Of a stretch of 64,000 nucleotides of DNA, positions 8,399 through 60,763 are shown one piece after another. Within the stretch, counting starts at the first letter, position 1. Every line of letters starts with the position of its first letter. This DNA comes from a virus. Lineage: Duplodnaviria; Heunggongvirae; Uroviricota; Caudoviricetes. Below the pieces are notes generated by a model. That model was not told the DNA's origin. It made no database searches and worked only from the letters and a program-made list of their open reading frames with translations. Both the position numbers and the translations under genes were made by a program. The stretch is taken from the IMG/VR virus record IMGVR_UViG_3300021255_000114, positions 231,942 to 295,941 of that record; one strand, given 5' to 3'.

Positions 8399-8803
8399 TC
8401 ACTTAATATACATATCGTCATCTGCTTCAAGAGCCAAACCCTTTTTAATTAATCCACGATAGTCAAAGTGATGCGAGTTGAGCCAATCAAACATATTTAG
8501 TTCATTTGCAAGATTACACATCATTGGTTGAAAATCAGGATGCAGTTCATATACACAATGGCATGCTCTAAATTCTTTTAGTTCCTCTTCAGACATACTT
8601 GACATTGGTCGGAGATAGGGTTTGATGTTTTCCAAATTTCTTTCGTAACCATCTGAAAAAACAAACTCTTTATTATCGTTTGTAGTACCAATAACGTCGA
8701 ATGTATATTCAACACCGGCTTCATAACATTTTATACCATACGGCAACCTTGCACAAAGGTCTACCAATAAAATCTGTTTTTGTTCTTGTGTCATATTATT
8801 CAA
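8399..8803 (-). CDS. member of a six-copy small-protein family (conserved LLLKDLCARLPYG N-terminus and HFDYRGLIxKGLALEAPEGMY C-terminus)
   Basis: The conserved termini can be aligned by eye across 8399, 12532, 12936, 42665, 43303 and 44206. Confidence 0.6.
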   Translation of the reverse strand: MNNMTQEQKQILLVDLCARLPYGIKCYEAGVEYTFDVIGTTNDNKEFVFSDGYERNLENIKPYLRPMSSMSEEELKEFRACHCVYELHPDFQPMMCNLANELNMFDWLNSHHFDYRGLIKKGLALEADDDMYIK

Positions 8804-13949: not shown

Positions 13950-13969
13950 TTTAATCAATTACAACATGG
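13950..13969 (-). promoter_or_regulatory. conserved phage promoter copy
   Basis: caacatggcaaagatacc lies 24 nt upstream of the start at 13936. Confidence 0.5.
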
Positions 13970-14011
13970 CAAAGATACCAAAAAAATCCCGATGCAGAAT
14001 ATACCGGAATT

Positions 14012-25913: not shown

Positions 25914-25914
25914 G

Positions 25915-27931: not shown

Positions 27932-28261
27932 TTATTCTTGTTTTAGTTGTTTAGCCATCCATTCTGCTCCTGCTTTGAAAGCATCTTCAATTGCCTGTGA
28001 AGGAAACCATACATCGTGCTCTCTATTGACTACTCGTGCTTCACCGTCATAAGGACAATCATATTCATAATAATTCTCTGCCGCTTCTTCAAGGTTGGAG
28101 GGAAGGGAAGGCTGCTCCTGCTGGAGAGAGTCTATAAAATTTTCTATTTCAATGAGAGCACAGTGCCGGCCGTGACGTTCATCATCGTTAATCGGGCATA
28201 CTTTGAATCTTTCCGTAAGAAAATTTCCCAGTTTATCTGCGTCAATGTATTTCATGGTCAT
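27932..28261 (-). CDS. hypothetical protein
   Basis: 109-aa ORF. Confidence 0.45.
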   Translation of the reverse strand: MTMKYIDADKLGNFLTERFKVCPINDDERHGRHCALIEIENFIDSLQQEQPSLPSNLEEAAENYYEYDCPYDGEARVVNREHDVWFPSQAIEDAFKAGAEWMAKQLKQE

Positions 28262-29277
28262 AACTTTTTAAGGTTCTTTCGCAATCCGTTTAGCATATTG
28301 AAAAGATAGTCGTTTTCGTGAGGATGCTTGCTTACTGCAAGGGTATTTATAATCTCATTCAATGCTTTCATCTGCTCCTCACTGGGCTTCCAATGGGGTT
28401 GTGCTTTGAGGGATTTGAGCCAGTCCACTTGATAGATGTCAAGCCACTCTCCTTCGTCTAAATTTTCAATAATGCTATTAATCATTCTCTCATCCTCTTC
28501 ACTCCATTCTTGTTTTGGTTGAGGTTTGAGAGATTCAATCCAGAAAGCCAGTTTATTGGCTAATTGTGCTGGTGTATCTGAATCTCGTATGATTTTCAAT
28601 ATAGTATTATAGTTTTTCTCATCCTCTTCATTCCACTCAGCAGGCTTCTGCTCATCCATAGTAGCCATAGCAACCTTTTCGCCATTCATTTGTTTCAAAC
28701 AGTTACCAACAATCTTTGCATCAGCACTATAGCCTTCTTGTATGAGAATGTCTATAAGTTTCTGACAGTATGCTTTTGCTCTGTCAGTCGGCTGTATCAT
28801 ACTAAGCAAACGAGGAATAGCATTGAAAGTATATTTTTTATCGGTAGGCTTCTGCTCACCCTGCTTTTCTGATAGCATCAATTCATCCAAATCCGATAAT
28901 TTTATGTAATCGCATTCAAATCCAAGGCTTGAACTAAGTCTATAATCATTACCATTCTTTATCAAGTAAATTAGTTTGCCTTCCCCGTTTCCAGCAATAC
29001 CGTCTTTCCAATGATTCCAAATGGACGTTTTCTTTGATTCTTTCGTGCCTTGCTTTTTGAGCCAAGCAATCATGGATTTTTGGTTCATTGGATTGAGAAT
29101 ACTGCTTGATTGTTTAACAAGCTCAATGATATTATTCCTTAATCTATCATCTTTATTCTCTTTGAGTTCAGGAAACATTTCTTCTAAATGTAAACTATCT
29201 GGAGCACCTTTAGCATAAAGTGCTTTTGCTCTTCCAAAAGCCTCGTCATAGGCTTTTGCTTTTTGCTTTTCTGTCAT
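28258..29277 (-). CDS. member of the three-copy family
   Basis: AYDEAFGRAKALYAKGAPDSLHLEEMFPELKE is identical to the 8998 copy; the protein also carries KPAEWNEEDEK and LKSLKAQPHWKPSEE. Confidence 0.6.
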   Translation of the reverse strand: MTEKQKAKAYDEAFGRAKALYAKGAPDSLHLEEMFPELKENKDDRLRNNIIELVKQSSSILNPMNQKSMIAWLKKQGTKESKKTSIWNHWKDGIAGNGEGKLIYLIKNGNDYRLSSSLGFECDYIKLSDLDELMLSEKQGEQKPTDKKYTFNAIPRLLSMIQPTDRAKAYCQKLIDILIQEGYSADAKIVGNCLKQMNGEKVAMATMDEQKPAEWNEEDEKNYNTILKIIRDSDTPAQLANKLAFWIESLKPQPKQEWSEEDERMINSIIENLDEGEWLDIYQVDWLKSLKAQPHWKPSEEQMKALNEIINTLAVSKHPHENDYLFNMLNGLRKNLKKL

Positions 29278-34582: not shown

Positions 34583-36862
34583 TTATTTTTTCATTAATCC
34601 GTGTTCGGGGTCATAGGCATAAAGGCATGTTATAAAGGGTGTTTCGCTTGACAAAGCAAGTCTCCAGTACATATCAAACAATTTCGACCATCTTGGTCCC
34701 TGTTTGTTTTTTCTGTACCCTCTCGCAGATTTGTGACGGTATTTTTCTTGAAGTTCCGGGTGTTTATCTATATAATCATACATATACCGTGTTTCTCCAT
34801 CCCTAAACAGATTCTCGTCCAAATAATTGGCTATGATTGGTTCCTTCATCCTATCAGCAATTATGAAACGTTGGTTGTTTGGGTTTCCTCTTAAAGTTTG
34901 CCTTTGACTTATCCGCTTAATGTTATCGTCGCCCTTTGATGAATACAGGTATACCATATTGTGCAGGACCTTCTGTGATTCTTTTTTGCATTCATCGCTG
35001 TATTTTTCATATTCTTTTTTATAGGACGAATCATTGTATATCGCTTCGAACAAGGCAACTATTTCCGATTCATTATATACTTTTTCAAACACAACATTCT
35101 CCATGAACAACCGACGTCCAAGTAAACACAAACCGTGGTTGTATTTAGCGCGAACAGCCGCATACTCCGAGTTGTCAAAACCGAGCTTTTTGTTCGTGTC
35201 AAACGGGAGTATGTATATGTTGGCCACTTTTTCTCCACCCCAACGGTTAACACGCCCCAAACCCTGTTGGAATTCGTGCATCGGAAGATAGGCATCAGTA
35301 TAGAAATTATTCGCTGATATATCATGGCCGGTGGTTACCAGGTTTGTACAAACCATCACACCTTCTTCATTCCTGTTTTTTGAGAAATGGCGATACATAT
35401 CGGTAATATGCTTATTCATATCATGAGTGGTGTAATTGCTATGGCATAGCACGGTATTATTTTTGGTGTTTTTGGCTTTAACACCGTCATAGAGTTTTTG
35501 GGACGTTTTTACACCGTTAACCATTGCGATGGAATTATTCTCCATAGACAAATCAAACGTCTCGAGTTGATGGAAGATATAACGTTTATCCTGCGCACCT
35601 TTATAATGCCTCGGCTCAGTGTATACATGCCTTTTAAATGATTTATACAAGAGCGATTGCGGTGTTGCGCTGCAAAGTATTGTTTTTGCATTATAGTTTA
35701 ACCTTGACAAATTCATTAATTGGAATGCGCGATTACACCCGCTTCTATCCATATATGTATGATATTCGTCAAAAGCAACCGTACGGACCATAACCTCGAA
35801 GGCCATTTCCTTCATGTCATTGTCCCTTATAAAGGGATTGAAGAAATTATCTATGTTTGTGACGATTATATCGTTGTTAACATTATCCTTCAATCCTTGA
35901 ACCCAACCTCCTCCTTTTTTATAATATAAACCTAGTGTTATCTTAATATTATACACTTTTAAAAGATTGGCCAATGAACCATAAAGCGCATCACAAAGGT
36001 TGTCTGTGGGGCAGACGAACATCGCCTTTTTACCTATGGCAAGTACACTACGAAGCAGGATGTCGGTTTTCCCGAATCCGGTATTCTCGTTTATTTCGAA
36101 TATGTGAAAATTGGAATTGGCAATTTTTCCCACATATTCGCTTTGAATATTGAAACGGTATGAATCATATCCGTCGGGCTTTTGTATGTCGGAAACACCA
36201 AAAGTAACAGGCAGTTTCAAACCATTGTCCATAAATGTATCGTCAATGATGTAATCCCGGTCCGATTTTGCAATTAAAGCAAACAGCGTTTGATACGGCA
36301 CATCCTTTATATCACTTTTCGCAACATCATCCTGAAACAGATACAAGCATTCGTCTGAAAAGGTGGTGTCAGTTTCTGAGATATTATTTACCTCCAACTG
36401 GAAATCGGGATTCTTCCTATTGTTGATTTCAACCAATTCATGTATAACAGGCAATATTGCAGATTCCTCGGTCTTTATTTTTTTAAGTGCCGAATCAATC
36501 TTGAACGACAACCCGCAATAAGGATGATGTCCCAACAACACTCGCATGACCGTGGAATACATCAACCTGACTGAATTCATCTGCGCATAATCACAATTGG
36601 CCTTTGGTTTTATGTAAAGCCAAAATATCAAGGCACTTGAAACATTGTGCAGCACCTCAGGTGTTTCATCGTTTTTCAAATAAGCCTGAAACTCGTTCAT
36701 TATCTTTCCAAGGTCATGGAACAATCCTACCGTATATGCACATTTACGCCACGTTTCATTGGTAATATATTTTCCCGCAAGGAATTTGCAGTTGTCAGCA
36801 ACCGTTGTGGAATGCTCCATAAACGATATAACCGGCTTTGTTTTTGCTATCAGTTCTTTCAT
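34583..36862 (-). CDS. cas3: Cas3 HD nuclease-helicase
   Basis: HD-domain residues MEHS...LFHDLGK...GHH. Helicase Walker A NTGFGKTD. DExH box AFDEYHTY. Motif VI QQGLGRVNR. Confidence 0.85.
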   Translation of the reverse strand: MKELIAKTKPVISFMEHSTTVADNCKFLAGKYITNETWRKCAYTVGLFHDLGKIMNEFQAYLKNDETPEVLHNVSSALIFWLYIKPKANCDYAQMNSVRLMYSTVMRVLLGHHPYCGLSFKIDSALKKIKTEESAILPVIHELVEINNRKNPDFQLEVNNISETDTTFSDECLYLFQDDVAKSDIKDVPYQTLFALIAKSDRDYIIDDTFMDNGLKLPVTFGVSDIQKPDGYDSYRFNIQSEYVGKIANSNFHIFEINENTGFGKTDILLRSVLAIGKKAMFVCPTDNLCDALYGSLANLLKVYNIKITLGLYYKKGGGWVQGLKDNVNNDIIVTNIDNFFNPFIRDNDMKEMAFEVMVRTVAFDEYHTYMDRSGCNRAFQLMNLSRLNYNAKTILCSATPQSLLYKSFKRHVYTEPRHYKGAQDKRYIFHQLETFDLSMENNSIAMVNGVKTSQKLYDGVKAKNTKNNTVLCHSNYTTHDMNKHITDMYRHFSKNRNEEGVMVCTNLVTTGHDISANNFYTDAYLPMHEFQQGLGRVNRWGGEKVANIYILPFDTNKKLGFDNSEYAAVRAKYNHGLCLLGRRLFMENVVFEKVYNESEIVALFEAIYNDSSYKKEYEKYSDECKKESQKVLHNMVYLYSSKGDDNIKRISQRQTLRGNPNNQRFIIADRMKEPIIANYLDENLFRDGETRYMYDYIDKHPELQEKYRHKSARGYRKNKQGPRWSKLFDMYWRLALSSETPFITCLYAYDPEHGLMKK

Positions 36863-36901
36863 GGTGTAAATATACTATTTTGAATTGAAATATTGCTTGA
36901 A

Positions 36902-37660
36902 ATTTTTAATCAAATAAAATTATATTATTAAAGAGTAGTTGTTATCACTATGTAAAATGGTACGTAATTGTTAATCAATTGGAAATTATATTATTAAATA
37001 GTTGTATGCCCTACAAAGCATTGATTCCATAAAATTGTTAATTGAATAAAGATTGTATTATTAAAGAGTTGACTTGATAGCAATGATGACATCCCATAGA
37101 TTGTTAATCAATTAAAAATCATATTATTAAAGAGTCTCGTGTTGCTTCGTTCACTGCCTGGTCCCATTGTTAATCAAATAGAAATTATATTATTAAACAG
37201 TAGGCTGTGGTAGTTATGCCAATGGCAGTATATTGTTAATCAATTAAAAATCGTATTATTAAACAGTAATAACGGTGAACTTGTGGAAGCTGTAGAATTG
37301 TTAATCAATTAAAAATCGTATTATTAAACAGTCGGTGGGAAGATTTGGGGCGCGTTTCAAAATTGTTAATCAATTAAAAATCGTATTATTAAACAGTGTT
37401 AACGGTATAAGCGTTATATCATACGCATTGTTAATCAATTAAAAATCGTATTATTAAACAGTTCGCTTAATGAACAAATTCAATAAACTAAAATTGTTAA
37501 TCAATTAAAAATCGTATTATTAAACAGTGGTGCGCTTACCCTATGCAACTCCCTTCTTATTGTTAATCAATTAAAAATCGTATTATTAAACAGTTGTTAA
37601 CGGCATTTCCGTGATTAGTTACGCATTGTTAATCAATTAAAAATCGTATTATTAAACAGT
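36902..37660 (-). CRISPR. CRISPR array with 12 repeats of 36 bp (plus strand ATTGTTAATCAATTAAAAATCGTATTATTAAACAGT) and 11 spacers of 29-31 bp
   Basis: Seven perfect repeats (37232-37660) sit at the cas6-proximal end. Five progressively degenerate repeats (36902-37201) sit at the cas3-proximal end. A 62-bp AT-rich leader lies at 37661-37722. Read on the minus strand the repeat starts ACTGTTTAAT, which resembles type I-B repeats. Confidence 0.9.
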
Positions 37661-37722
37661 ACACTCCTTATAAAGCATTGTATTTATGTGCCTTACAAAG
37701 AGTTTTATATTTAAAAAATGCA

Positions 37723-38439
37723 TTAAACACCACCAAATGTGAATTTTTGAGTCATATTTTTCCTTTCTAATACTTCAATAGCGCCGAAACCGCTTCCGGT
37801 TGACCCCCCGATTCCAAGACTATAAAGAAGTTTTCTTGTCTTTGGCTTGCCATAAACCGTGGCAACAAACGATGTGCAAGGATTGAATACATCACCAACG
37901 AATATGTTTTTAACTTTAATATTCTCCGGTTTATTGAATTCAATTCTGAAAGTTTCATCAAGAATACCATTATTGGATAATTTCCTTTTGCAATGCTCAG
38001 TAAGCACTGTCTCCCATCCTTCATCACGGTATGTTATTTTCCTTCCGTCTTTTATAAGCAATACCGGTGACAAAGTCTTAATCACGTCATACGTTTTTCC
38101 CACCTTGCTATCGTCCTCGCACACTATATGTGTAACTCTTCTCCCGAATAAAACCTTGTTTTTACTATTGATGCTTTTGATAACCCCAGCAACAATTCGG
38201 TTGGTGATATCGTCCGAAGCACTTGAAACTTGGATATAAGGATTCATAACGGGTACAAGGCATTTCTTATCATTGGATGCTACAAGGCCCTGCAACCCTG
38301 AAATGGAATACGGGCTGAAACTCGAATGGATTCCTTCATCCCTATCAAACAGGTGGTTGTAGATGAAACCGTTTACTTCACGCTGATTCTTGAACGGGAT
38401 GCTATCCCCATCCTTTTCGAATATAATTTTAACTATCAT
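37723..38439 (-). CDS. cas6: Cas6 crRNA endoribonuclease
   Basis: 238 aa with the C-terminal glycine-rich loop GIGGSTGSGFG (GhGx5GhG), located directly next to the array leader. Confidence 0.8.
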   Translation of the reverse strand: MIVKIIFEKDGDSIPFKNQREVNGFIYNHLFDRDEGIHSSFSPYSISGLQGLVASNDKKCLVPVMNPYIQVSSASDDITNRIVAGVIKSINSKNKVLFGRRVTHIVCEDDSKVGKTYDVIKTLSPVLLIKDGRKITYRDEGWETVLTEHCKRKLSNNGILDETFRIEFNKPENIKVKNIFVGDVFNPCTSFVATVYGKPKTRKLLYSLGIGGSTGSGFGAIEVLERKNMTQKFTFGGV

Positions 38440-39529
38440 GTTTTATTGTTTCGTTTAGTTTGTCAAACACTTCGTTGTTGAACGTAGGAACGTCGGTGCA
38501 TACATAACGCATACTGCAATACCCATAACTCTCAATCTGATCTTCACTTAGTAAATCATATGGTAGCAGCACATCATCCACACCATATTCAGACCATTTA
38601 AGCACATCAACAATTCCACCCTCAAGGAACCTTGCGGTTTGCATGCCGGTAATAAATTGTTCCACATATTCCTCGTTTAGTTTGAATACGAATTCCCCGT
38701 TAAGGATTATGACTTTCTGTGGATAACCCTTCTCCGTCTTGATAAACGGGCCCGTGAGTTCAGAGCGGTAAGTTGTTCCGTTGACGAAATTCAATAGATT
38801 GGCATTTTTCAGATATTCCATCACCTTGACAGCGTTTACCTGCATCGCAGCCGAAATTGCAAACGTAAGCGTGGCATATTCTCTCGCATTCCGGCCGGTT
38901 ATTTCTGATATAAGCGAAACCAAACCATCCATTGCACCCTGTTTCTTTGAATTGCAACGAAGGTATCGCATATCAAACTGCTCCCAACAAACAGTGTCTA
39001 TGGAATTATTTGAAATCGTGCTATCATTGTTTGTTGCATGGTAATTCGCGAAATGCCCGTAAGACCACTTAACAACTTCGGTGTTCGGTCGTTTCAAACC
39101 GGTTTTACATGTGTGGAAATACGGGGCATACAATCCAACAAACCCATCAAGAACCATTTCGTCGATATCGGCATTTCTTTTGGCACCCTCCGGACCGTGA
39201 AACGTTGATACCGGTTTTTTCTGTAGCATTACGGCATACATATTGGATGCGGTATGAAGGGTGAAGGGATACAAAATATTCCCCTCCACCTTGTCCACAT
39301 CCTTCATATCATACCACAAAATTGAATCAGGTGAACATTTATCACGCATACCCTTCTCACCTGTGTATTTGTTATATACAATATCAAATTTATATGATTT
39401 AGGTTTAGATGATTTCTTTGGTTTATCTTCCGTTACCACATTGTTTTCATCCGATTCACGCTTCCTTATCTTATCATAATAAGGCAATTTGGCATTCTCA
39501 AACCTTAGTCTTACCCAATAATCATTCAT
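38429..39529 (-). CDS. putative Cascade subunit (Cas5/Cas7-family candidate)
   Basis: 366-aa gene in the cas operon, overlapping its neighbours by 4 and 11 nt. No diagnostic motif was recognised. Confidence 0.45.
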   Translation of the reverse strand: MNDYWVRLRFENAKLPYYDKIRKRESDENNVVTEDKPKKSSKPKSYKFDIVYNKYTGEKGMRDKCSPDSILWYDMKDVDKVEGNILYPFTLHTASNMYAVMLQKKPVSTFHGPEGAKRNADIDEMVLDGFVGLYAPYFHTCKTGLKRPNTEVVKWSYGHFANYHATNNDSTISNNSIDTVCWEQFDMRYLRCNSKKQGAMDGLVSLISEITGRNAREYATLTFAISAAMQVNAVKVMEYLKNANLLNFVNGTTYRSELTGPFIKTEKGYPQKVIILNGEFVFKLNEEYVEQFITGMQTARFLEGGIVDVLKWSEYGVDDVLLPYDLLSEDQIESYGYCSMRYVCTDVPTFNNEVFDKLNETIKHDS

Positions 39530-40536
39530 TTTTCCTTTTTATTGTTCTTAGCCTTTTTATTGGCTGTGTCGGAACATGCGTTGTTGTAAGGCGCGTAATC
39601 CTCAAGCGAAGCCTCGTTATAGAATTTCTTGTATTCAAAATTGATGCTCTCCACATCTTTCAATGTAATGTTCTCGAGCACATCCTTCGTGTTATCCTCG
39701 TAATGAATGATCAAGTCCATGCCAAGGAAATCAATCGACCCATTGCTATGACGTTCACCATTAAACATAATGAACTGCGACAGAATATATCTGACCTGTT
39801 GGTTAATCATATCGTCAGTCAGCATGAATGCCATATCGACTTCTTTGTTGCCGGTATGATTGCCAATCCTGTAATACGGTTTAATACAAGTCTTATCAAT
39901 CGAAGTGTTGAAATTCTTCGATAAACAAGTGAAATAATAGTCCATATCATTATCGTTCTTGAATTCAACAGCCATTTTTTGATGGCCGCCGTCAACGTAG
40001 ACAATCTGCATATCCGGGATGGAGAACATGAACCTGCCTTCATAGGTATATTCGCCAACATTCTCCACCGCATAGAGCGTGTTGTCTTTACCGGCGCCAT
40101 CGGTCTTTTTAATACCACTCATGGTTTTGGTTTCAAATGGAACGTGTTTAATGGGTTCCATATTGGCAACCAAAGGAAAGAGTTCATATCCTCCCTTTCG
40201 ATGACCCTCGTATGCAGAATCACCGTCTTGCTTAGTATAGAGGTAGCCCTTTGCAAGAATATAGGGGTCAGCCAAATGGCTTAAATACATTTCTCTGAAT
40301 TTCGTGCACTGATTGAATGTGCAACTCCCAAAAACAGCCTGATTGATTGCCTCGGCGCTGATCTTGTATTTGAAACCATCACCAACAAGCATTTTCTTAC
40401 AGTAGACTACGTTTTTATTAATGTTTTTTGTCCACTTGTAAACGTTTGCAGTATCACCGGCAAACTCGCCATCACAATTGAAAGCTCCACTGCCACTAAA
40501 TTTTACGCGGCCCTCAAGTTTAATTATTTTTTTCAT
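39526..40536 (-). CDS. putative Cascade backbone subunit (Cas7-like candidate)
   Basis: 336 aa with an ATGA overlap to the downstream gene, so likely translationally coupled. Confidence 0.45.
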   Translation of the reverse strand: MKKIIKLEGRVKFSGSGAFNCDGEFAGDTANVYKWTKNINKNVVYCKKMLVGDGFKYKISAEAINQAVFGSCTFNQCTKFREMYLSHLADPYILAKGYLYTKQDGDSAYEGHRKGGYELFPLVANMEPIKHVPFETKTMSGIKKTDGAGKDNTLYAVENVGEYTYEGRFMFSIPDMQIVYVDGGHQKMAVEFKNDNDMDYYFTCLSKNFNTSIDKTCIKPYYRIGNHTGNKEVDMAFMLTDDMINQQVRYILSQFIMFNGERHSNGSIDFLGMDLIIHYEDNTKDVLENITLKDVESINFEYKKFYNEASLEDYAPYNNACSDTANKKAKNNKKEK

Positions 40537-40555
40537 TTTTTATTTTTATTTACAT

Positions 40556-40948
40556 TTAATTCAATTGTTCGTACAGTTTCTTGTACATCTTATCCGGATC
40601 ATCCAACCATTCGTCGGCAATAATCTTTATCTTCTTGGTGATACCCAATTCGAGACTGCCTTTGAATGGTATATCATTCTCATCCAACAACAACCATTCG
40701 AAACAATTACTCACATAGGAATCAAATATGATATATTGAACCAAAACATATGGGATGCCAAATGAAATGCATTTCTTCTCGATGAGTTGCCTGTCAAACG
40801 AAACATCGTAGATATCAATACAGACTCCGGCAAAAACATCCCAAGAAAGACTCAATCTATGCAAATAACGTTCAACGAACTCCACAAGCATGTCATTAAC
40901 GGAAGGTCCCTCCCATCCTAAAAGTAAACTGTAATCCGTCTTTTTCAT
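40556..40948 (-). CDS. hypothetical protein in the cas operon (candidate small subunit)
   Basis: 130-aa ORF. Confidence 0.4.
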   Translation of the reverse strand: MKKTDYSLLLGWEGPSVNDMLVEFVERYLHRLSLSWDVFAGVCIDIYDVSFDRQLIEKKCISFGIPYVLVQYIIFDSYVSNCFEWLLLDENDIPFKGSLELGITKKIKIIADEWLDDPDKMYKKLYEQLN

Positions 40949-40975
40949 TTTTTTTTACAATTTAAAATTCCCTAT

Positions 40976-41401
40976 TCAATATTTGCATCTTTTAATCAAT
41001 ATTTTCTCTTCGTCGGTCGCATAACGATATGTATAGCCAGATTCATGCGTCAAGACCTCTGGTTCGCATTGAATAAAACCGCATCCACTGTTAATCATTA
41101 AGCATTTAGGCTTGAAATCCATTTCTCCTTTATAATCATCGGGCATGATAAAGAGTGCTGGAAAAACATCATCGTTTTCAAACGAATAAACAACATCACC
41201 CGGTTTAAAACCACATGGAGTATTAAAAACCTTCGCTTCAAAAACAGGAACAATTTTTCCATTCCCCTTTGGTTCAAACTGCTCAATATAAGGAATAATC
41301 TCCTTGGATGCGCTTTCACGTTTGGGATATTCAATCTTCGGGTCGTTAATGTATGCACAAACAATTTCGTGCAGAAGATTCCATTTTTCTCTTTCGTCCA
41401 T
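40976..41401 (-). CDS. hypothetical protein in the cas operon (candidate small subunit, Cas11-like position)
   Basis: Start reassigned to the internal Met so that TAA-C-ATG abuts the stop of the upstream gene. Confidence 0.4.
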   Translation of the reverse strand: MDEREKWNLLHEIVCAYINDPKIEYPKRESASKEIIPYIEQFEPKGNGKIVPVFEAKVFNTPCGFKPGDVVYSFENDDVFPALFIMPDDYKGEMDFKPKCLMINSGCGFIQCEPEVLTHESGYTYRYATDEEKILIKRCKY

Positions 41402-41402
41402 G

Positions 41403-42578
41403 TTATTCCTTTTTGTCATTAAAAAAACAACCGCCGCAATTCCGCAATTCGTGCTCGAAACAGGCACAATCAAATGTGGTGGTGTGTGCAAGAATAATCT
41501 TCATCTTTCCATCAACGTTGAATATGTAAGTATCAAAACAGCCGGAACCACTCATCATCGGACTGTCACCGGTATGTTGAACAAAACAACGGAATTCATC
41601 ACCATCACTTTTCCAATAATCAAGATAGATTTTCGGAGAACTCTCGATGGCATCTTCAAGTTCAATAGTATCTTTGATATGTTCAGGAGCCTCATTCCAC
41701 ACGTCATCGATGTCCTTGGTAGAACGCGCGATGTACTCCATATCACCCTTTGCAATGGCACACACCTTGGATGCAATATCACAAAACTGTTCTCTATAGT
41801 TGTTTTCCGTTATTACATCATCACTGGTAACTTCCCACTTGATGGGACACAAATCAACGGTGATTTCGTTAGTGTTGTTTGGCTTATTGCGAGTATCGAC
41901 TCTTATAATGAAATGGTTGGTAACCAGTGTGAAACTGCCTTCCTCTACAACCTCTGCACCGTTAACTTCCTTAATGTGTGCATTCATCAGGTCTGAATAC
42001 CCATCCCACAGTTCGTTGTCGAGGTCTTCAGGAGTAATCTTAATACCGTATCTTTCAAGGATTGCAGAAGCTTTTTTGAAATTATATCTGCTAACAAGAT
42101 AGTCAGCAAGCCTGTCCATGATTTCAAGCATAGGCATATTGAGAACTCCCTTGGCCTTTTCGGTGAGTTGTTCCACACTCATACTTCTGTTAAACACATG
42201 AGACATTATTGAATGCATCTTGACATTGTACTGCGGCGGCATAACATTGTAGTTGGGCAGCTCCTTGATGTAGTCACCAATACAGGTCATTGGGATATAG
42301 ACTGCGTAGGCAATCAAAATAGACCAAATTTCAGCAGTGATTGGATCATCATCCCAAGCGACCTTAGACCCACGTTCCTTTTTCACCTCAGGCGTTGCAT
42401 CGAGCCAGGCGTTGAATTGCTCGCGCATAAAGTTCAAAATGGACTTGGGAGAATAGAAGTCCCGATTCGGACAATCAAGATTGCAGACAACTTCCATATC
42501 ATGGATGAGGTTGCCTGAATGACGGTAGAAATTCTTTGCGTAGAGAATCTGATGGTTGTTTTTGATTTGATTTGGCAT
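41403..42578 (-). CDS. first gene of the cas operon (candidate large subunit, Cas8-like) with a C-terminal Cys cluster
   Basis: 391 aa; the C-terminal cluster reads CFDTY...DCACFEHELRNCGGCF. The conserved promoter lies 28 nt upstream. Confidence 0.45.
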   Translation of the reverse strand: MPNQIKNNHQILYAKNFYRHSGNLIHDMEVVCNLDCPNRDFYSPKSILNFMREQFNAWLDATPEVKKERGSKVAWDDDPITAEIWSILIAYAVYIPMTCIGDYIKELPNYNVMPPQYNVKMHSIMSHVFNRSMSVEQLTEKAKGVLNMPMLEIMDRLADYLVSRYNFKKASAILERYGIKITPEDLDNELWDGYSDLMNAHIKEVNGAEVVEEGSFTLVTNHFIIRVDTRNKPNNTNEITVDLCPIKWEVTSDDVITENNYREQFCDIASKVCAIAKGDMEYIARSTKDIDDVWNEAPEHIKDTIELEDAIESSPKIYLDYWKSDGDEFRCFVQHTGDSPMMSGSGCFDTYIFNVDGKMKIILAHTTTFDCACFEHELRNCGGCFFNDKKE

Positions 42579-42595
42579 ATTATTATGATTTTCAT

Positions 42596-42615
42596 TTCAA
42601 CAGCCCAAAGATACC
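42596..42615 (-). promoter_or_regulatory. conserved phage promoter copy driving the cas operon
   Basis: ttcaacagcccaaagatacc. Confidence 0.55.
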
Positions 42616-42664
42616 GAAAAAATCCTGCACACGGTAAAACTTTTTTCTTAAAAAAATTTAATTC

Positions 42665-43075
42665 TTAATACATTCCTTCAGGTGCTTCAAGAGCCAAACC
42701 CTTTTTAATCAATCCACGGTAGTCGAAATAATGTGCGTTAAGCCAATCATAAGTTTTAATAGTATATGTATACTCATACCCTATTGGTGTACCGTAGTCG
42801 TCCCACTGTACTACTATTTTATCCTTTGTTTTATAATATTCCCTCTTTTCTTCCTCAGTCATACTTGACATTGAACGGAGATAGGGTTTAATATCTTCAA
42901 CGGTATACACTTTTGTATTCTCAATGTAGCCATTTTTATCAATGTCTTCTAAAGTTTCAACAATAGACATTTCTTGGTCCCACTCATAGTTCCAAGCATC
43001 TCTTACGAATTTTACCCCATACGGCAACCTTGAACACAAGTCTTTAAGCAATAGTTCTCTTTCTTCTTTTGTCAT
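42665..43075 (-). CDS. member of the six-copy small-protein family
   Basis: LLLKDLCSRLPYGVK...YLRSMSSMTEEEK...YFDYRGLIKKGLALEAPEGMY. Confidence 0.6.
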   Translation of the reverse strand: MTKEERELLLKDLCSRLPYGVKFVRDAWNYEWDQEMSIVETLEDIDKNGYIENTKVYTVEDIKPYLRSMSSMTEEEKREYYKTKDKIVVQWDDYGTPIGYEYTYTIKTYDWLNAHYFDYRGLIKKGLALEAPEGMY

Positions 43076-43296
43076 TTTGTTTTTAATATAAATTTATTAC
43101 TATCTTCGTCATAGTCGAATTCTGTATGCTCATCGACTTCATAACCATTCATTTTCCCAATGCTAAGTAGCAGATAGTTCGGATTGTTAAGAAAATGGAT
43201 AAACTCAATAAGCATTTTCCATTTTCCGAATATTGGGCGACAACTGTAAGAATGAGAATAAATTCTATTTACATAATATTCACTCTTTTCTTTCAT
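43072..43296 (-). CDS. hypothetical protein
   Basis: 74-aa ORF. Confidence 0.4.
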   Translation of the reverse strand: MKEKSEYYVNRIYSHSYSCRPIFGKWKMLIEFIHFLNNPNYLLLSIGKMNGYEVDEHTEFDYDEDSNKFILKTK

Positions 43297-43302
43297 GTCA
43301 TT

Positions 43303-43641
43303 TTATTTATACATATCCTCGGGCGCTTTGATAGCAAGGTTCATTGGGATAAGACCCCTATAGTCAAAGTGATGCGAGTTGAGCCAATCAAATGTATCAA
43401 TATTCCAGCCATCCAACCCCCATTTTTCAAAAAATTCTTCGTGTTCTTCCTCAGTCATAGAAGACATTGGACGGAGATATGGTAAATACGGTTCTAAACC
43501 ACTTTCTATATTAGCCACAATAATTGCATACCATAGAGCATCTAAAATTATATAGCCTTCAACACCTCCATCTATTCTGGTATTGTATGGTACTCTTGCA
43601 CAAAGGTCTTTTAACAGCAATTCTTTTTCTTCTAGTGTCAT
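43303..43641 (-). CDS. member of the six-copy small-protein family
   Basis: LLLKDLCARVPYN...YLRPMSSMTEEEHEEF...HFDYRGLI. Confidence 0.6.
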   Translation of the reverse strand: MTLEEKELLLKDLCARVPYNTRIDGGVEGYIILDALWYAIIVANIESGLEPYLPYLRPMSSMTEEEHEEFFEKWGLDGWNIDTFDWLNSHHFDYRGLIPMNLAIKAPEDMYK

Positions 43642-43642
43642 A

Positions 43643-44203
43643 TTATTGATAATCTTTCCAAAGTGTATCTAACTTATGAATAAGTTCATTCTCATAATCA
43701 TTCATTTCTCCAAAAGGAATATCATCTAAAGGTGTCCCATCAGAAGGGCGTTTATAAGAACGAATTTCATTTTTCTTCTTGATATATTCTTTGATTTTAG
43801 GACTATTTCTCGCTTCACAGGCTTTCAAATATTGATTCCAATTAACATACTTTTCACCAGTGTCCATATCACTTATTTCAACAATTGTATGACAATAACA
43901 GTCATCATACGGCGTATATAAACCACTTGTGAAAATGTCAATGAACTCATCAATATATTCAGGAGTGAATTGAGAATAAGTTTCATAGATGTTCTTTTCT
44001 CCAAGGTCTTCTCTCTGGCTAATCCAATTATGGTCACAAATACCGCCAAAACTAGTGCGGCGAACATAAGGTTCAAATTCATTGATTGCCTTCATAAATG
44101 GAAGAAACTTCTCAAAGACAGAATCTTCAACTTTGACAACATCTTTTACATAATCTGCGTCATTGTAATCACCAACAATAAGTAACTTTTTCATATTATT
44201 CAA
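43643..44203 (-). CDS. hypothetical protein
   Basis: 186-aa ORF. Confidence 0.5.
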   Translation of the reverse strand: MNNMKKLLIVGDYNDADYVKDVVKVEDSVFEKFLPFMKAINEFEPYVRRTSFGGICDHNWISQREDLGEKNIYETYSQFTPEYIDEFIDIFTSGLYTPYDDCYCHTIVEISDMDTGEKYVNWNQYLKACEARNSPKIKEYIKKKNEIRSYKRPSDGTPLDDIPFGEMNDYENELIHKLDTLWKDYQ

Positions 44204-44205
44204 TA

Positions 44206-44637
44206 TTAAATGTTATACATACCTTCAGGTGCCTCTAGTGCAAGGCCCATTTCAATCAAACCACGATAGTCGAAATGGTTTTTCAGCAAAAAGTTTTGAA
44301 GAACTATAAAATCATCGAAGTCATATGTTGAATGTTTTTCATCATCATATAAACATTGCTTTACTTCAATGCCTCGATGAGAATATTTGTCATTATCATC
44401 GGATGGATAGCCAAACCACAATGTGTTTCTCAACTCATTTTTCTCTTCCTCAGTCATACTTGACATCGGACGGAGATAGGGTTTGGTGTTTTCCAAATCA
44501 TCTATATTGGGATGGCAGTCGAGGTCGCATTTGACAGGGGTGTTTCTGTTTCTGTGTTTAACCATTACGCCATAAGGCAACCTTGCACAAAGATCTACCA
44601 ATAAAATCTGTTTATCTTCTTGTGTCATATTAATCAA
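44206..44637 (-). CDS. member of the six-copy small-protein family
   Basis: ILLVDLCARLPYGV...YLRPMSSMTEEEKNEL...HFDYRGLIEMGLALEAPEGMY. Confidence 0.6.
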   Translation of the reverse strand: MINMTQEDKQILLVDLCARLPYGVMVKHRNRNTPVKCDLDCHPNIDDLENTKPYLRPMSSMTEEEKNELRNTLWFGYPSDDNDKYSHRGIEVKQCLYDDEKHSTYDFDDFIVLQNFLLKNHFDYRGLIEMGLALEAPEGMYNI

Positions 44638-48492: not shown

Positions 48493-48512
48493 TTCAACAC
48501 CGTAAAGATACC
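48493..48512 (-). promoter_or_regulatory. conserved phage promoter copy
   Basis: ttcaacaccgtaaagatacc. Confidence 0.5.
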
Positions 48513-52392: not shown

Positions 52393-52956
52393 TTAATTTT
52401 TCAATTTCTGCAATTTTTGGCTTAGCATTTTTCTAAGGGTTTCGATTTGGTTTTGTGTAAGGAGTGTTTCTGTCTTGAGTTTGGAGAGTTCGATAACGCT
52501 GCTTTCATATTCCTCATATGTTTTAAGCCCGTTTATCAGGTTTTGATAGTGTACCCAAGCCTTGCGTTTCTCCCCACGTGAGGGTTTACTGCCATTAGTG
52601 TCAGCGTTCGTTTTAGGGAAGTTTTCTTCCCTTTTAAGGAAGTTTTCTTCCCTTTTAAGGAAGTTTTCTTCCTCTTTTATCGACTCTTCATCATTAAGGA
52701 AGTTTTCTTCCCTTTTAGGGAAATTTTGTTCCTCTTTAGGGAAATTTATTTCCCCTTTTAATTTTTTGTTGATTGAGTTTCTGTGGTTGCTTACCTGCCG
52801 TATGGTTATATTCATAATGGAGGCGATATCCTCTCTGAGGATTTTGGGATATTGTGTTTCTATTGCCATAAGGAATTTTTCCTCCAATGTGAACCGTTTA
52901 TCCTGCAATATGTCATATGGAATGTGCAGGTCCGTGATAACGTAATTTCTATGCAT
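52393..52956 (-). CDS. HTH DNA-binding protein containing REENFLK heptad repeats encoded by the iteron array
   Basis: HTH-like ILREDIASIMNITIRQVSNHRNS, followed by six 7-aa repeats. Confidence 0.55.
   Translation of the reverse strand: MHRNYVITDLHIPYDILQDKRFTLEEKFLMAIETQYPKILREDIASIMNITIRQVSNHRNSINKKLKGEINFPKEEQNFPKREENFLNDEESIKEEENFLKREENFLKREENFPKTNADTNGSKPSRGEKRKAWVHYQNLINGLKTYEEYESSVIELSKLKTETLLTQNQIETLRKMLSQKLQKLKN
52615..52758. repeat. six tandem 21-bp iterons (AAGGAAGTTTTCTTCCCTTTT, each with a GGAAG/CTTCC inverted core) inside the coding region
   Basis: Direct tandem repeats at 21-bp (two helical turns) spacing, with an 18-bp spacer after the third copy. Confidence 0.7.
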
Positions 52957-52985
52957 GTCTTCAATGGTTTATCTACACATAGATA

Positions 52986-53027
52986 TAAGGAAGTTTTCTT
53001 CCCTTTTAAGGAAGTTTATTTCCTTCA
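52986..53027. repeat. two further iteron copies in the 5' UTR of the HTH gene
   Basis: The same 21-mer occurs twice between the promoter -7 box (53032-53041) and the ATG at 52956. Confidence 0.65.
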
Positions 53028-53041
53028 ATATTGCAAAGATA
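53022..53041 (-). promoter_or_regulatory. conserved phage promoter copy
   Basis: ttcaatattgcaaagatact. Confidence 0.5.
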
Positions 53042-53089
53042 CTGTTTATTTTGTTTGGGGTGTAATGCCGGCATGTTAAAGTGTGTTAT

Positions 53090-57477: not shown

Positions 57478-57497
57478 TTCAACAGGGTAAAGATACC
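57478..57497 (-). promoter_or_regulatory. conserved phage promoter copy, with an upstream TTAACAAATGTTAAAA element
   Basis: ttcaacagggtaaagatacc. Confidence 0.55.
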
Positions 57498-57535
57498 TAA
57501 AAATTTTATATTAGACAAAATTTTAACATTTGTTA

Positions 57536-57551
57536 AGACACGATTGTGTCC
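57536..57551. promoter_or_regulatory. palindromic element AGACACGATTGTGTCC
   Basis: Fourth GACACnnnnGTGTC site, about 40 nt upstream of the promoter. Confidence 0.4.
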
Positions 57552-57553
57552 TG

Positions 57554-57808
57554 TTACCTCAGTTCATCCTCTATGGACTCACAGAGCCTGTTGAGGCTAT
57601 GGAGCAAGTTATGCCCGGTAATGCAGAATTTTGGCTTGCCATCCACATAGACAATTTCGTTGCCGTATTCTGTCTCCATATTGATATTGCGTTTGGGATA
57701 CCTCTCTTGGAATGCCGCCAATGCGTCGTTGAATATTTTGCGTTCTATTCTGTCCACGTTTTTTCCTCCTCGATTAGTTTGCCGATAATTTCTTCTTTTG
57801 AAAAGCAT
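57554..57808 (-). CDS. hypothetical protein
   Basis: 84-aa ORF; the exact start is ambiguous because an overlapping 52-aa alternative exists. Confidence 0.35.
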   Translation of the reverse strand: MLFKRRNYRQTNRGGKNVDRIERKIFNDALAAFQERYPKRNINMETEYGNEIVYVDGKPKFCITGHNLLHSLNRLCESIEDELR

Positions 57809-57907
57809 TCATACCAAGAGGTGCTTTTCCACGGGTATGCCTCACGAAGCATATCCAAAAGCGTTGTTTTTTTCAGTCTGCGGAGTTGCGTTTTTGTGTG
57901 CATAGTT

Positions 57908-58549
57908 TTAATTGTTTTCTATGGGTTCCATAAAGTTGTAGACACATTCGGAGGCGATTTCCATCATCTGATAGGAATAATGGGGGTAATCGCTATCCTC
58001 TTCGGCAGCTCTCACCACGTCCTTGTCATCGTAGATTTTGGTAAGGAGATAGTAGTCCACCATCACGTCCTGATAATCGTCGGCCTTAAAATAAGCCTCG
58101 ATTTCATTCTCCACAAAACTTATAAATCCACTGCGTGAACTATATTTTTCCTTGAGGTATTTGTTGAAACCGTCATACATTTCCTTGTCGGAACGGATGA
58201 GGTTCTTGAGATAATCAATGTCGATATTGAGGTCGAGAACGATTTTGTCCGTGGTGAAGTTATAGTATGCCGGGCTGTTCACCTCTTTGAATTTTACACT
58301 ATCACAGAGATTTTCATCCTCCATAAGCATAGGGGCTATGAGGTTGTCCGTAATGCGTTCACATACGGCATTCTGGAATGCGGTGAAATCGTTGATGTCG
58401 TGTTCAACAAATTCCTCCCCGTTATCCTTGCAATTTTCTTCAATTTGACGGTTTTCCTCATAAAGCGTATCGGACGAGAATAAGATGCTTTCGTAAAAGC
58501 CGGGCATAATGGCTAAGTTGTCATCGCAATACTCAAAGTGATTTTTCAT
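57908..58549 (-). CDS. hypothetical acidic protein
   Basis: 213-aa ORF with a promoter copy 17 nt upstream. Confidence 0.5.
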   Translation of the reverse strand: MKNHFEYCDDNLAIMPGFYESILFSSDTLYEENRQIEENCKDNGEEFVEHDINDFTAFQNAVCERITDNLIAPMLMEDENLCDSVKFKEVNSPAYYNFTTDKIVLDLNIDIDYLKNLIRSDKEMYDGFNKYLKEKYSSRSGFISFVENEIEAYFKADDYQDVMVDYYLLTKIYDDKDVVRAAEEDSDYPHYSYQMMEIASECVYNFMEPIENN

Positions 58550-58565
58550 ATTGTCTGATTTTTAA

Positions 58566-58585
58566 TTCAACACCATAAAGATACC
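58566..58585 (-). promoter_or_regulatory. conserved phage promoter copy
   Basis: ttcaacaccataaagatacc. Confidence 0.55.
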
Positions 58586-58670
58586 TAAAATAAATGAATT
58601 GGATAATTTTTTAACACTTGTCTTTTGATTACGCTGTTCAAGATATTTGATTTTCGTTTGTAAATTCTGT

Positions 58671-58934
58671 TTATCCAAATATTTCTTCGATGTCGTAATC
58701 GTCAGGATTTCGACTGTTTTCGTTAAGCCAGTTGTCTTCTTCACACCATTCTTTTATCATATCCTCAATTTCCGCATATAAGCAAAGATTAGCCATTCTC
58801 AACGGGCATCTGTCGCGTCCGATGATTGACAGAGCGTGTTGGTAACGAGGCTCGAAGTCATCAACATTGTCGATTACATACTGTACCATCTCTTTCGGTG
58901 CGTTCTCTGTATTAAAATCGTCTGATGTGTACAT
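58671..58934 (-). CDS. hypothetical protein
   Basis: 87-aa ORF with a promoter copy 32 nt upstream. Confidence 0.45.
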   Translation of the reverse strand: MYTSDDFNTENAPKEMVQYVIDNVDDFEPRYQHALSIIGRDRCPLRMANLCLYAEIEDMIKEWCEEDNWLNENSRNPDDYDIEEIFG

Positions 58935-58955
58935 AGTTTAATAATATATTTTAAT

Positions 58956-58975
58956 TCAACAATGCAAAGATATTT
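58956..58975 (-). promoter_or_regulatory. conserved phage promoter copy
   Basis: ttcaacaatgcaaagatatt. Confidence 0.5.
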
Positions 58976-59095
58976 AAATTAATTGATATAAACAATTTTT
59001 TAACATTTGTTAAGGTTTGGCTCGGCAAATGTTAATTTTTTGCGTATACCGGATTTTTTTGTTATCTTACCCTTGTTGAAAGGGGAAAAATATAA

Positions 59096-59119
59096 CCGCC
59101 CGGGATTGTCCCCGGGCGG
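59096..59119. terminator. intrinsic terminator (CCGCCCGGG-attgtc-CCCGGGCGG)
   Basis: Perfect 9-bp GC stem flanked by A/T runs, 26 nt downstream of gene 59145. Confidence 0.55.
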
Positions 59120-59144
59120 CTTTCGTGCATCGCGAAGTTTTCTC

Positions 59145-59654
59145 TTACATTCCGAGGTTGGCGCACTGCTCATTGAAATGGCCGCGCTTTCCGTCCATTT
59201 GCTTTGCGATTGCGAGGCGTGCCTCAAACTCCTTGATGTCGTGGCTGACGGTCTTGTAGAACTTGGTTGCGATGCGGTAGACAACGTCCGATGGTTTGCC
59301 CTTGATGTTCATTGCCTTGTTGTAGGCGTTTGCCATTTGGTAGACTGTTTCGCACTGTTCCGCGTTGAACTCCTTGTAGCCCTTGTGGAACTCGCTGTGC
59401 TTGTAGGCACCTGCGGAGATGCCGCAGGAAAGAACAGCATAAAGGGGCATTTCGGGATGGTTTGCGTGGAAATCCTCAATGGACTTGCACACATTCTGAT
59501 GCTGTATAGCCTTTGCTTTTACGGGCTTGAACTGTGCGAGGTTCAGTTTTCCGCCGAGTTTGACGGATGCGTAGTCGGCAACCATTGCCTTGATGTCGGT
59601 GGTGTTCTTGTCGGTGTTGATGATGTCCATTGGACAGGCTATGTTTTTCTGCAT
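59145..59654 (-). CDS. hypothetical protein
   Basis: 169-aa ORF. Confidence 0.5.
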   Translation of the reverse strand: MQKNIACPMDIINTDKNTTDIKAMVADYASVKLGGKLNLAQFKPVKAKAIQHQNVCKSIEDFHANHPEMPLYAVLSCGISAGAYKHSEFHKGYKEFNAEQCETVYQMANAYNKAMNIKGKPSDVVYRIATKFYKTVSHDIKEFEARLAIAKQMDGKRGHFNEQCANLGM

Positions 59655-59687
59655 AATGTTTTTCCTCCTATTTTTTTATTGATTGAT

Positions 59688-59888
59688 TTATTTTTCTTCG
59701 TATGCGTAATCCGCAGTGGCTTCTCCGAATTGAAAACTTCCGTTTGGGATTTCCACATTGTCGGGAAAAGGCTTTAGTGTTTCCGGATTTAACGCGTTTT
59801 GGGCTTTTTCAACGGCTTCTCTTACGTTTTTTGCCTCAACGGTCATACTTCCGTTGTAAGTTAATACAAGTTCCACTCTATATTGCAT
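59688..59888 (-). CDS. hypothetical small protein
   Basis: 66-aa ORF. Confidence 0.4.
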   Translation of the reverse strand: MQYRVELVLTYNGSMTVEAKNVREAVEKAQNALNPETLKPFPDNVEIPNGSFQFGEATADYAYEEK

Positions 59889-59901
59889 ATCTCGGTTTGT
59901 T

Positions 59902-60093
59902 TTATGACATTAATGTAACGGTTTCACATTCTGTGTACTCTATTGCAGCGGTGTATTTATCACCGCAATGTATTTCGGGTTTTGCGTCCTCATAGGCGAG
60001 GTCGAGCAAGTCACTGCTTTCAAGTTCATTTGCGAGTTGGCGAAGACTTTCGGCACTGAAACCGTCTTCTGTTTCGATTGTTATTCTAATCAT
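59902..60093 (-). CDS. hypothetical small acidic protein
   Basis: 63-aa ORF. Confidence 0.4.
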   Translation of the reverse strand: MIRITIETEDGFSAESLRQLANELESSDLLDLAYEDAKPEIHCGDKYTAAIEYTECETVTLMS

Positions 60094-60107
60094 CTTTTTA
60101 TTTACTT

Positions 60108-60410: not shown

Positions 60411-60430
60411 AATATTGTCTGTTTTAATTG

Positions 60431-60746: not shown

Positions 60747-60763
60747 ATTATCTGTTTTTTAAT

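Follow-up and report, generated by a model that had tools for sequence, protein, structure and literature searches.

A small-protein family of jumbo phages with two variable segments that reassort within a conserved frame

The plastic loci of T4-type phages hold clusters of small, non-essential genes with fast turnover, in which a conserved segment is joined to a variable remainder. Some proteins of these loci counter host defences; T4 IPI* inhibits GmrSD. Here we describe a family of small proteins encoded in a 64,000-nucleotide stretch of viral DNA (Duplodnaviria; Heunggongvirae; Uroviricota; Caudoviricetes; positions 231,942 to 295,941 of IMG/VR record IMGVR_UViG_3300021255_000114; hereafter the window). 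The set consists of six open reading frames (ORFs) of 112-143 amino acids, all on the minus strand (Table 1), and in all six, two unalignable segments (V1 and V2) lie between three conserved blocks (N, middle or M, and C). The family shares with the T4-type loci its small genes of fast turnover and the union of conserved and variable parts. The T4 internal proteins differ, having no sequence or fold relation to the family: their conserved part is just an N-terminal capsid-targeting peptide, whereas here three blocks run through one compact predicted domain and enclose two internal cassettes that reassort.

Other described systems resemble the family in part. The targets of diversity-generating retroelements, too, combine a conserved scaffold with a diversified segment on a phage. 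The family differs in that no reverse transcriptase, template repeat or adenine pattern was found in the parts of the window searched, and its variation comes from recombination among many pre-existing cassettes. Tail-fibre modules, the antigenic variation of pilin and vlsE, and the multigene families of large DNA viruses use frameworks as recombination joints and have expanding tandem arrays. The likeness to these cassette-based mosaic families lies in the framework joints between variable cassettes and in tandem arrays that expand and contract. They are surface or secreted proteins or silent donor cassettes, whereas the copies described here are complete, apparently expressed, cytoplasmic ORFs of ~125 amino acids. 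In function the family most resembles, by analogy, these mosaic families and the plastic accessory regions of large phages. SUKH/SMI1-type and other polymorphic-toxin immunity families showed no fold or profile similarity to it, and no adjacency to toxin genes was found in the neighbour analysis.

The only match of the family is phrog_10841 (PHROGs v4, unknown function), which the six window copies hit at E values of 9e-10 to 2e-3 and 84 of 85 aligned relatives also match (best E 7e-12). Where phrog_10841 has been catalogued, in phages of 54-79 kb, its genes stand alone or in pairs; here, in contrast, the family has expanded in phages of 300-400 kb, to 6 copies in 64 kb and as many as 27 within 20 kb. 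We found no paper mentioning the family or phrog_10841. The family has a catalogue entry but no published description; its architecture, its mosaic evolution and its scale seem not to have been reported.

The six copies and the mosaic of their cassettes

A preliminary description, made from the letters of the window alone, had proposed a hypervariable family of six copies, three of them ~30 kb from the others, with near-identical ends and unrelated cores. All six ORFs are present, and a six-frame scan of the window with a profile hidden Markov model built from 85 family members finds exactly these six (E 2e-37 to 3e-61), with no further match at E ≤ 10. The alignment of the six copies has 29 invariant columns, clustered as the N, M and C blocks, and the shared motifs quoted earlier for the N-terminus, middle and C-terminus are correct in it. 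The N block reads (E)LLxDLCxRxPYG, with LLxDLCxRLPYG as the family form. The M block reads PYLRPMSSMTEEE, or KPYLRPMSSMTEEE in short form, and the C block reads DWLNxHxFDYRGLIxxxLAxxAPxxMY in the six copies and also DWLNxHxFDYRGLIxxGLAxEAPxxMY. The cores are indeed unalignable: among the six copies, pairs agree at 58-93% of nucleotides in the three blocks but at 26-47% in V1 and V2. Two of the ORFs open with TTG (copies 44206 and 8399; copies are named here by their first coordinate), and their true start is probably an internal ATG that gives MTQE... as in the other copies. The gene calls of the source contig have these two proteins at 140 and 131 amino acids, respectively.

The variable segments recur in other genomes in differing combinations, so the variation of the cores is not alignment noise. 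Profile coordinates served to divide each of 227 unique full-length copies into its five segments (N, V1, M, V2 and C), and similarity clustering gave 184 clusters of V1 and 180 of V2. Protein pairs were alike in V1 alone 39 times, in V2 alone 46 times and in both 8 times, counts that depend on the thresholds used (identity of 50% or more, covering 70% or more of the segment). At the DNA level, locus L087 is 85-95% identical to L044 and L016 over N, V1 and M, after which similarity is lost; its identity to L020, by contrast, is 90-100% and covers M, V2 and C. Copy 42665 has its V1 in common with L056 6568-7155, and the V2 segments of this pair are unrelated.

The same pattern is seen where the window meets a 413-kb phage contig, IMGVR_UViG_3300031994_000001 (locus L048). 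The only extended homology to L048 in the region of the three copies at 42,665-44,637 is a 694-nucleotide block, which takes in gene 43643-44203 in full together with the flanking C block of copy 44206 and N block of copy 43303, and which ends where the variable segments begin. The product of gene 43643-44203 (186 amino acids) is 78% identical to its L048 counterpart; the family copies that flank it show only 37-40% protein identity to those at the matching L048 positions. Within the window, which copy is the closest relative of another depends on the block compared. The N block of copy 44206 is closest to that of copy 8399 (92% DNA identity), the M block of copy 42665 to that of copy 44206 (93%), and the C block of copy 42665 to that of copy 8399 or 12936 (84%), with just 63% between the C blocks of copies 44206 and 8399. 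The sharing of V1 or V2 alone, the ends of the L048 block and this switching of relatives indicate that V1 and V2 reassort independently by homologous recombination with breakpoints in the conserved blocks, between paralogues and genomes and within one genome.

Each cassette, where shared, is kept under purifying selection. In pairs that share one, the ratio of nonsynonymous to synonymous substitution rates (dN/dS) is 0.17 for V1 and 0.19 for V2, close to the 0.08-0.16 of the blocks. The preliminary description had likened conserved ends, a diversified centre and many copies to families for diversified targeting; the scaffold and the diversity are real, but the dN/dS analysis shows purifying selection in shared cassettes. 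Where two of the six window copies have the same block residue, the codon is also the same in 55% of comparisons; codon usage would predict 36%. The many synonymous changes that the blocks nevertheless carry imply that they are kept by selection on the protein, perhaps with some homogenisation. Recent gene conversion was also considered as the cause of the conserved ends and was rejected, because the blocks differ at many synonymous sites.

Distribution, copy number and predicted fold

The family is very large. A HMMER scan of 1.84 billion representatives of clusters at 50% identity gave 7,842 matches at E ≤ 1e-3 and 4,008 at E ≤ 1e-10, including proteins with two or three family domains in tandem. 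Word-indexed searches returned at least 8,000 matches in one case and 3,846 in another, none informatively named. The earlier statement that no known domain is present was borne out: no Pfam-A or NCBIfam family passed its gathering threshold for the six copies or the 85 relatives (weak matches were scattered and inconsistent), and neither a PDB sequence-profile search with the family nor a PADLOC scan of one copy gave a match. A possible resemblance to YopX-type phage proteins was considered and dropped, as the motifs differ and the literature gave nothing relevant.

The carriers are IMG/VR phage contigs of up to 413 kb and contigs from rumen, caecal or faecal metagenome-assembled genomes (MAGs). 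The MAG contigs are mis-binned, and several of them are single contigs of 376-410 kb. Those deposited as Firmicutes, Erysipelotrichaceae or Bacilli MAGs, and probably jumbo-phage genomes, are ONIZ01000001.1 (410 kb; loci L096 and L106), CADBGE010000001.1 (400 kb; L102) and JAGAYY010000025.1 (376 kb; L110). Among INPHARED phages, neither blastn with the region nor tblastn with one copy found a match. A consensus query reaches cultured Cellulophaga phages: in phage phi13:1, gp097 and its neighbour gp098 form a tandem family pair annotated as hypothetical proteins, and gp097 keeps all three blocks in degenerate form (LKDLACYLPY, KPILRPLSDLTKE and WHFDIFGLIEKGLAI). The hypothetical protein gp046 of Cellulophaga phage phi10:1 also belongs to phrog_10841, and the marine (Cellulophaga-type) branch has at least 3,800 further unnamed members. 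The phage carriers, together with these degenerate and marine relatives, show a phage-specific family that is old, widespread in Bacteroidota phages and much expanded in the jumbo phages of gut and rumen. Occurring on phage contigs only, it is not a housekeeping domain.

Tandem arrays of the family grow and shrink, from one to at least 27 copies per 20 kb. Counts were made in 80 loci, namely four copies of the source region and 76 IMG/VR loci, each with up to 10 kb on either side. One copy was present in 39 of these loci and two or more in the other 41. L048 holds 27 copies in 20 kb (positions 1-20351), in an array that is syntenic with the window's three-copy cluster, including the intervening 186-residue gene. 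Of the 76 IMG/VR loci, 29 lie within 10 kb of a contig end, against 18.6 expected (simulated P ~0.001); on contigs of at least 100 kb the figures are 13 and 5.2. This excess may reflect assembly breaks in a variable region or a position near genome ends.

Some members carry C-terminal additions, which are a second or third family domain, a Cys-rich tail or DUF6794 (PF20594, E 2e-19; L034 1207-1938, L011 9986-10675, L014 10634-11344 and L082 4723-5439). DUF6794 and the Cys-rich tails are uncharacterised and gave no functional lead, and we found no paper on DUF6794. The neighbour analysis showed no recurrent partner gene and identified no toxin among the neighbours. What lies beside a family copy most often is another such copy or a member of some other expanded orphan family. 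These orphan families also consist of conserved motifs around variable stretches, and none has a Pfam match (examples among loci L005-L117 are L069 4997-5431, L027 16511-16906, L096 8240-8626 and L039 10452-10733). One of them (102 members in 52 loci) reads YVSFETAKLLKEKGF ... PTLQMAMKWLR ... TYEEACEAAIKYCL, and another (44 members) reads SQSKKLAEFLPxESADM ... PAWSLAALL ... NPVDAC. The window itself holds a second paralogue family, with an FPELKESEDE-type motif (8998-10086, 10106-10807 and 28258-29277), whose members have DNA stretches of 46-139 nucleotides in common at 85-96% identity across 19 kb, which suggests recent exchange.

The family proteins are ~125 amino acids long, have a single domain and are acidic (median isoelectric point 4.9); the N-terminus is an acidic helix with nothing like a signal peptide. 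AlphaFold2, run with an 85-sequence alignment, predicts a compact structure for copy 12532 with a mean predicted local distance difference test (pLDDT) score of 92.7 and a predicted template modelling score of 0.85. The modelled order is a helix (3-19), four strands (22-63), a helix (70-78), two strands, a helix (96-104) and a tail with no regular secondary structure, which is nevertheless placed at a pLDDT of 97-98. The N block forms the first helix, the M block the fourth strand and the start of the second helix, and the C block the third helix and the tail; V1 and V2 are strand-rich stretches, and D, Y and E are enriched in the V segments generally. For copy 43303 the model has a pLDDT of 75.5 and is confident in the C-terminal half alone (88-95). 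Foldseek found nothing in the PDB at E ≤ 1e-3 and, in BFVD, two uncharacterised viral models and no others. The structure prediction and search suggested at the outset thus yielded a confident fold with no significant match in the PDB. Small beta-barrels of the KOW (uL24), Sm (Hfq), Tudor and PAZ types resemble the model weakly.

The neighbouring CRISPR-Cas unit and the genomic setting

The preliminary description placed the three copies at 42,665-44,637 immediately upstream of a cas operon. The cas locus is real and adjoins them, but a 391-residue ORF and a promoter-like motif separate the two. In order, the unit at 34583-42578 comprises the 391-residue ORF, two small ORFs, the genes for a Cas7fv-like protein, its 366-residue partner and Cas6, the array and cas3. 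It is a phage-encoded type I-Fv-like CRISPR-Cas system with its own promoter motif, and no Cas1, Cas2, Cas4 or other adaptation gene was recognised at the locus. Between the end of the nearest copy, 42665, and the 391-residue ORF at the head of the cas transcription unit lie 87 nucleotides; the first gene recognisable as cas follows ~2.1 kb downstream of the copy. Since the promoter motif lies in this 87-nucleotide gap, the three copies end the upstream unit and the cas genes belong to the next one.

A conserved positional link between the family and CRISPR-Cas, for which the preliminary description had suggested a test, did not emerge. A tblastn screen with the window Cas3, Cas6, Cas7 and partner or neighbouring proteins found nothing within 10 kb of any of the 76 IMG/VR family loci, the set to which the screen was applied (37 MAG loci were left out). 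The window Cas7 has only two homologues among 5.8 billion proteins, and an IMG/VR search with Cas7 and Cas3 gave no relatives, so the test from the cas side rests on two metagenomic contigs, L122 and L121. L122 (88-90% DNA identity) has the same cas unit at another genomic position, with no family copy within 10 kb upstream. There, the 391-residue ORF and cas genes follow the Rnl2 region and a stretch homologous to window 13926-14437, a place where the window has a GmrSD_N-like gene and two family copies. L121 (~75% identity) has a C-terminal family fragment 3.4 kb upstream of cas7, different intervening genes and no 391-residue gene. These arrangements imply that the cas unit is a movable accessory cassette and that its adjacency to the family is not conserved. 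The recurrent association expected of an anti-CRISPR or Cas accessory gene was thus found neither at the 76 loci nor in L122. Family copies occur about once per 10 kb, so that one may well adjoin the unit by chance. Comparison of L122 5224-13181 with window 13926-16879 and 37297-42673 suggests an island that exchanges defence-type cassettes.

The analysis covered 64 kb, the window, of a 373,160-bp metagenomic contig; nearly all genes lie on one strand, and most are small ORFs with no recognised domain. Interspersed among them are genes for NAMPT, NAD synthase, an Rnl2-type RNA ligase, Thg1, adenylosuccinate synthetase, a Dam-type methylase and a GmrSD_N/DUF262-like protein. The contig size, the one-strand run of small ORFs and the scattered auxiliary genes identify it as a jumbo phage. 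The GmrSD_N/DUF262-like gene (13289-13936) overlaps copy 12936 by 4 nucleotides at its end. An auxiliary cluster at 15124-27105 holds the NAMPT, NAD synthase, Rnl2-type RNA ligase, Thg1-like and adenylosuccinate synthetase genes and one for a glucosaminidase; we take it to be compatible with NAD+ replenishment and tRNA repair by the phage as counter-defence functions.

The motif GGTATCTTTG-N4-GTTGAA has 19 matches in the window, against 0.06 expected, all intergenic and on the minus (coding) strand. Sites include 5040, 13960, 16856, 22960, 34511, 42596, 48493 and 50169, and eight more lie in 57478-63369. A hairpin precedes some sites, and at 57-63 kb nearly every small gene has a motif. A scan of the window for sigma-70 promoters and intrinsic terminators gave counts equal to those in shuffled sequence. 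The repeated motif is probably a phage promoter for one temporal class, and the positions of its sites suggest that the one at 48493-48512 probably heads a small-ORF transcription unit ending with the three copies upstream of the cas unit. The motif includes TAnnTTTG, the -7 promoter box of Bacteroidota. This, a weak match of a neighbouring gene to a type IX secretion system sorting domain, and the binning of many related contigs with Prevotella, Bacteroidales or Paludibacteraceae indicate a Bacteroidota host. At 52592-53051 a 21-nucleotide unit, TTTTAAGGAAGTTTTCTTCCC, occurs ~7 times in tandem, with more copies ~250 nucleotides away. Near 52000, GC skew changes from about -0.35 to +0.15 and AT skew falls to -0.35 with the coding strand unchanged; this region could be a replication origin with iterons.

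Table 1. Features of the window discussed in the text
Feature	Positions	Strand	Remarks
Promoter-like motif	5040-5059	-	next site downstream of 13960..13979
Family copy, 134 aa from TTG, probably 131 aa from internal ATG	8399..8803	-	profile E 2e-46
Family copy, 130 aa	12532..12924	-	profile E 3e-61; structure modelled
Family copy, 118 aa	12936..13292	-	profile E 5e-42
Promoter-like motif	13960..13979	-	a short way upstream of the GmrSD_N-like gene, with copies 8399, 12532 and 12936 further downstream
Cas3	34583-36862	-
CRISPR array, 12 repeats	36901-37663		36-nt repeats, degenerating towards the cas3 end
Cas6	37723-38439	-
366-aa partner	38429-39529	-
Cas7fv-like gene	39526-40536	-
Promoter-like motif	42596..42615	-	within the 87-nt gap between copy 42665 and the 391-aa ORF
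Family copy, 136 aa	42665..43075	-	profile E 9e-48
Segments of copy 42665	N 43010-43075, V1 42893-43009, M 42845-42892, V2 42752-42844, C 42668-42751	-
Family copy, 112 aa (shortest)	43303..43641	-	profile E 2e-37
Segments of copy 43303	N 43576-43641, V1 43489-43575, M 43441-43488, V2 43393-43440, C 43306-43392	-
Block shared with L048, 694 nt	43586..44279	-	blastn, 84.6% identical to L048 4967-5660
Family copy, 143 aa from TTG, probably 140 aa from ATG at 44628	44206..44637	-	profile E 1e-39
Segments of copy 44206	N 44563-44628, V1 44488-44562, M 44440-44487, V2 44299-44439, C 44212-44298	-
Promoter-like motif	48493..48512	-	nearest motif upstream of the three copies at 42,665-44,637

Proposed role and competing explanations

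An anti-defence or host-modulating role is plausible for the family. We propose that the predicted fold has a constant frame made up of the N, M and C blocks, with V1 and V2 displayed on it. The frame would supply folding, and perhaps a site for a common partner or ligand, while the two cassettes would give specificity. Block-centred homologous recombination reassorts the many V1 and V2 types, a cassette once formed stays under purifying selection, and the arrays expand and contract. Within an infected Bacteroidota cell, these acidic, cytoplasmic proteins would together make up a set of binders or inhibitors, in which different paralogues recognise different components of the host or of a competing phage, and so would serve as accessory factors in host takeover or counter-defence. 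Their adjacency to the CRISPR-Cas unit would then mean that both lie in the accessory part of the phage genome, not that they are functionally coupled. We regard this account of frame, cassettes and repertoire as the most likely one, though as an even call. It is unlikely, in our judgement, to extend to a germline-encoded combinatorial binder repertoire in Bacteroidota jumbo phages, in which recombination and array growth around two exchangeable recognition cassettes would give thousands of specificities for neutralising diverse targets in host defence or takeover; such a set would be the viral equivalent of a recognition-receptor repertoire, built on a fold not seen before.

Several observations weigh against the proposed repertoire. 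An arms-race effector should show raised dN/dS, and the shared cassettes show none, only cassette turnover. The ~20 nearly invariant polar residues of the blocks could equally mark a common catalytic or ligand site. In copy 43303, V1 is modelled at low confidence, with a helix where the model of copy 12532 has strands. The counts of cassette-sharing pairs vary with the thresholds, and we found no study of any family member. All sequences but those of the Cellulophaga phages come from metagenome assemblies; assembly chimeras are unlikely, because the identity of shared cassettes is 70-95%, short of 100%, and the samples they come from are independent.

It may be that the invariant block residues carry one conserved function, as a ligand, nucleic-acid or enzyme site, with V1 and V2 as weakly constrained spacers and the copies as dosage or neutral duplication. 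Across thousands of members the blocks are extremely conserved, and many of their D, R, Y, S, T, E, H and N residues are invariant, which fits such a site, as do the lack of any sign of positive selection and the weak resemblance to barrels that often bind nucleic acids. Purifying selection on shared cassettes is, however, as strong as on the blocks, so that V1 and V2 cannot be mere neutral spacers. Nor would one function readily explain why 6 to 27 or more very different copies are kept per genome, or why the V segments are modelled as ordered beta-structure, and we consider this explanation unlikely, although it is the main rival of the proposed repertoire. Targeted hypermutation of the cores, by a diversity-generating retroelement or similar, is hardly credible. 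Conserved ends around a variable centre give it a superficial likeness, but a repeat search of the whole window found no template/variable repeat pair, just the conserved blocks between copies (60-90% identity), and no repeat in the window matches a V segment. The precomputed annotations of the source contig contain no reverse-transcriptase Pfam family among the genes examined at window ~3,100-64,000, so that both the template repeat and the nearby reverse transcriptase of a retroelement target are missing from the parts searched. The cores vary in length and are unalignable, rather than differing by adenine-templated changes. With the low dN/dS of shared cassettes, this means that the diversity reflects assortment of many old cassette types, and the word hypervariable, if taken to imply targeted mutation, does not apply.

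Other explanations give the proteins a different setting. The preliminary description favoured accessory proteins functionally coupled to the neighbouring CRISPR-Cas (anti-CRISPR, immunity-modulating or targeting factors), and the three copies directly upstream of the cas unit and the family fragment upstream of cas7 in L121 agree with it. Against this stand the empty screen of the 76 loci, the cas unit of L122 with no copy near it, the two homologues of Cas7 set beside thousands of family members, the intervening promoter motif, the distance of 30 kb to three of the six copies and the likelihood of chance adjacency, which together make coupling very improbable. Virion-packaged or injected proteins like the T4-type internal proteins, with the blocks as a packaging or processing signal, would fit the excess of family loci near contig ends; a conserved N-terminus, a variable remainder and a location in plastic regions are likewise reminiscent of T4 internal-protein loci. 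The conserved parts are, however, spread over the whole domain and modelled in one compact fold rather than as a terminal signal, the genes lie among non-structural accessory genes and, as a weaker point, gp097 and gp098 of phi13:1 are annotated merely as hypothetical, so we judge packaging improbable. Quite improbable, too, is that the blocks matter mainly as DNA, as recombination joints that mobilise intervening genes and drive island turnover, with the proteins secondary. The block exchanged with L048 does consist of a C block, an intervening gene and an N block, the cas unit of L122 occupies the place of the GmrSD_N-like gene and two copies in the window, and codon sharing in the blocks exceeds expectation (0.55 against 0.36). 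The blocks are nonetheless conserved as protein through many synonymous changes, which implies selection on the protein, and intact ORFs are kept in thousands of copies.

In jumbo phages of the gut and rumen the majority of genes lack a known function, and this one family accounts for thousands of them. The analysis also cautions that function is not to be read from a single adjacency to CRISPR-Cas. The two-cassette architecture, the recombination joints, the purifying selection on cassettes and the swings in copy number turn an anonymous PHROG into a concrete, testable system. If its members are indeed binders or inhibitors, the family would be a rich source of counter-defence specificities and a compact scaffold for engineering.

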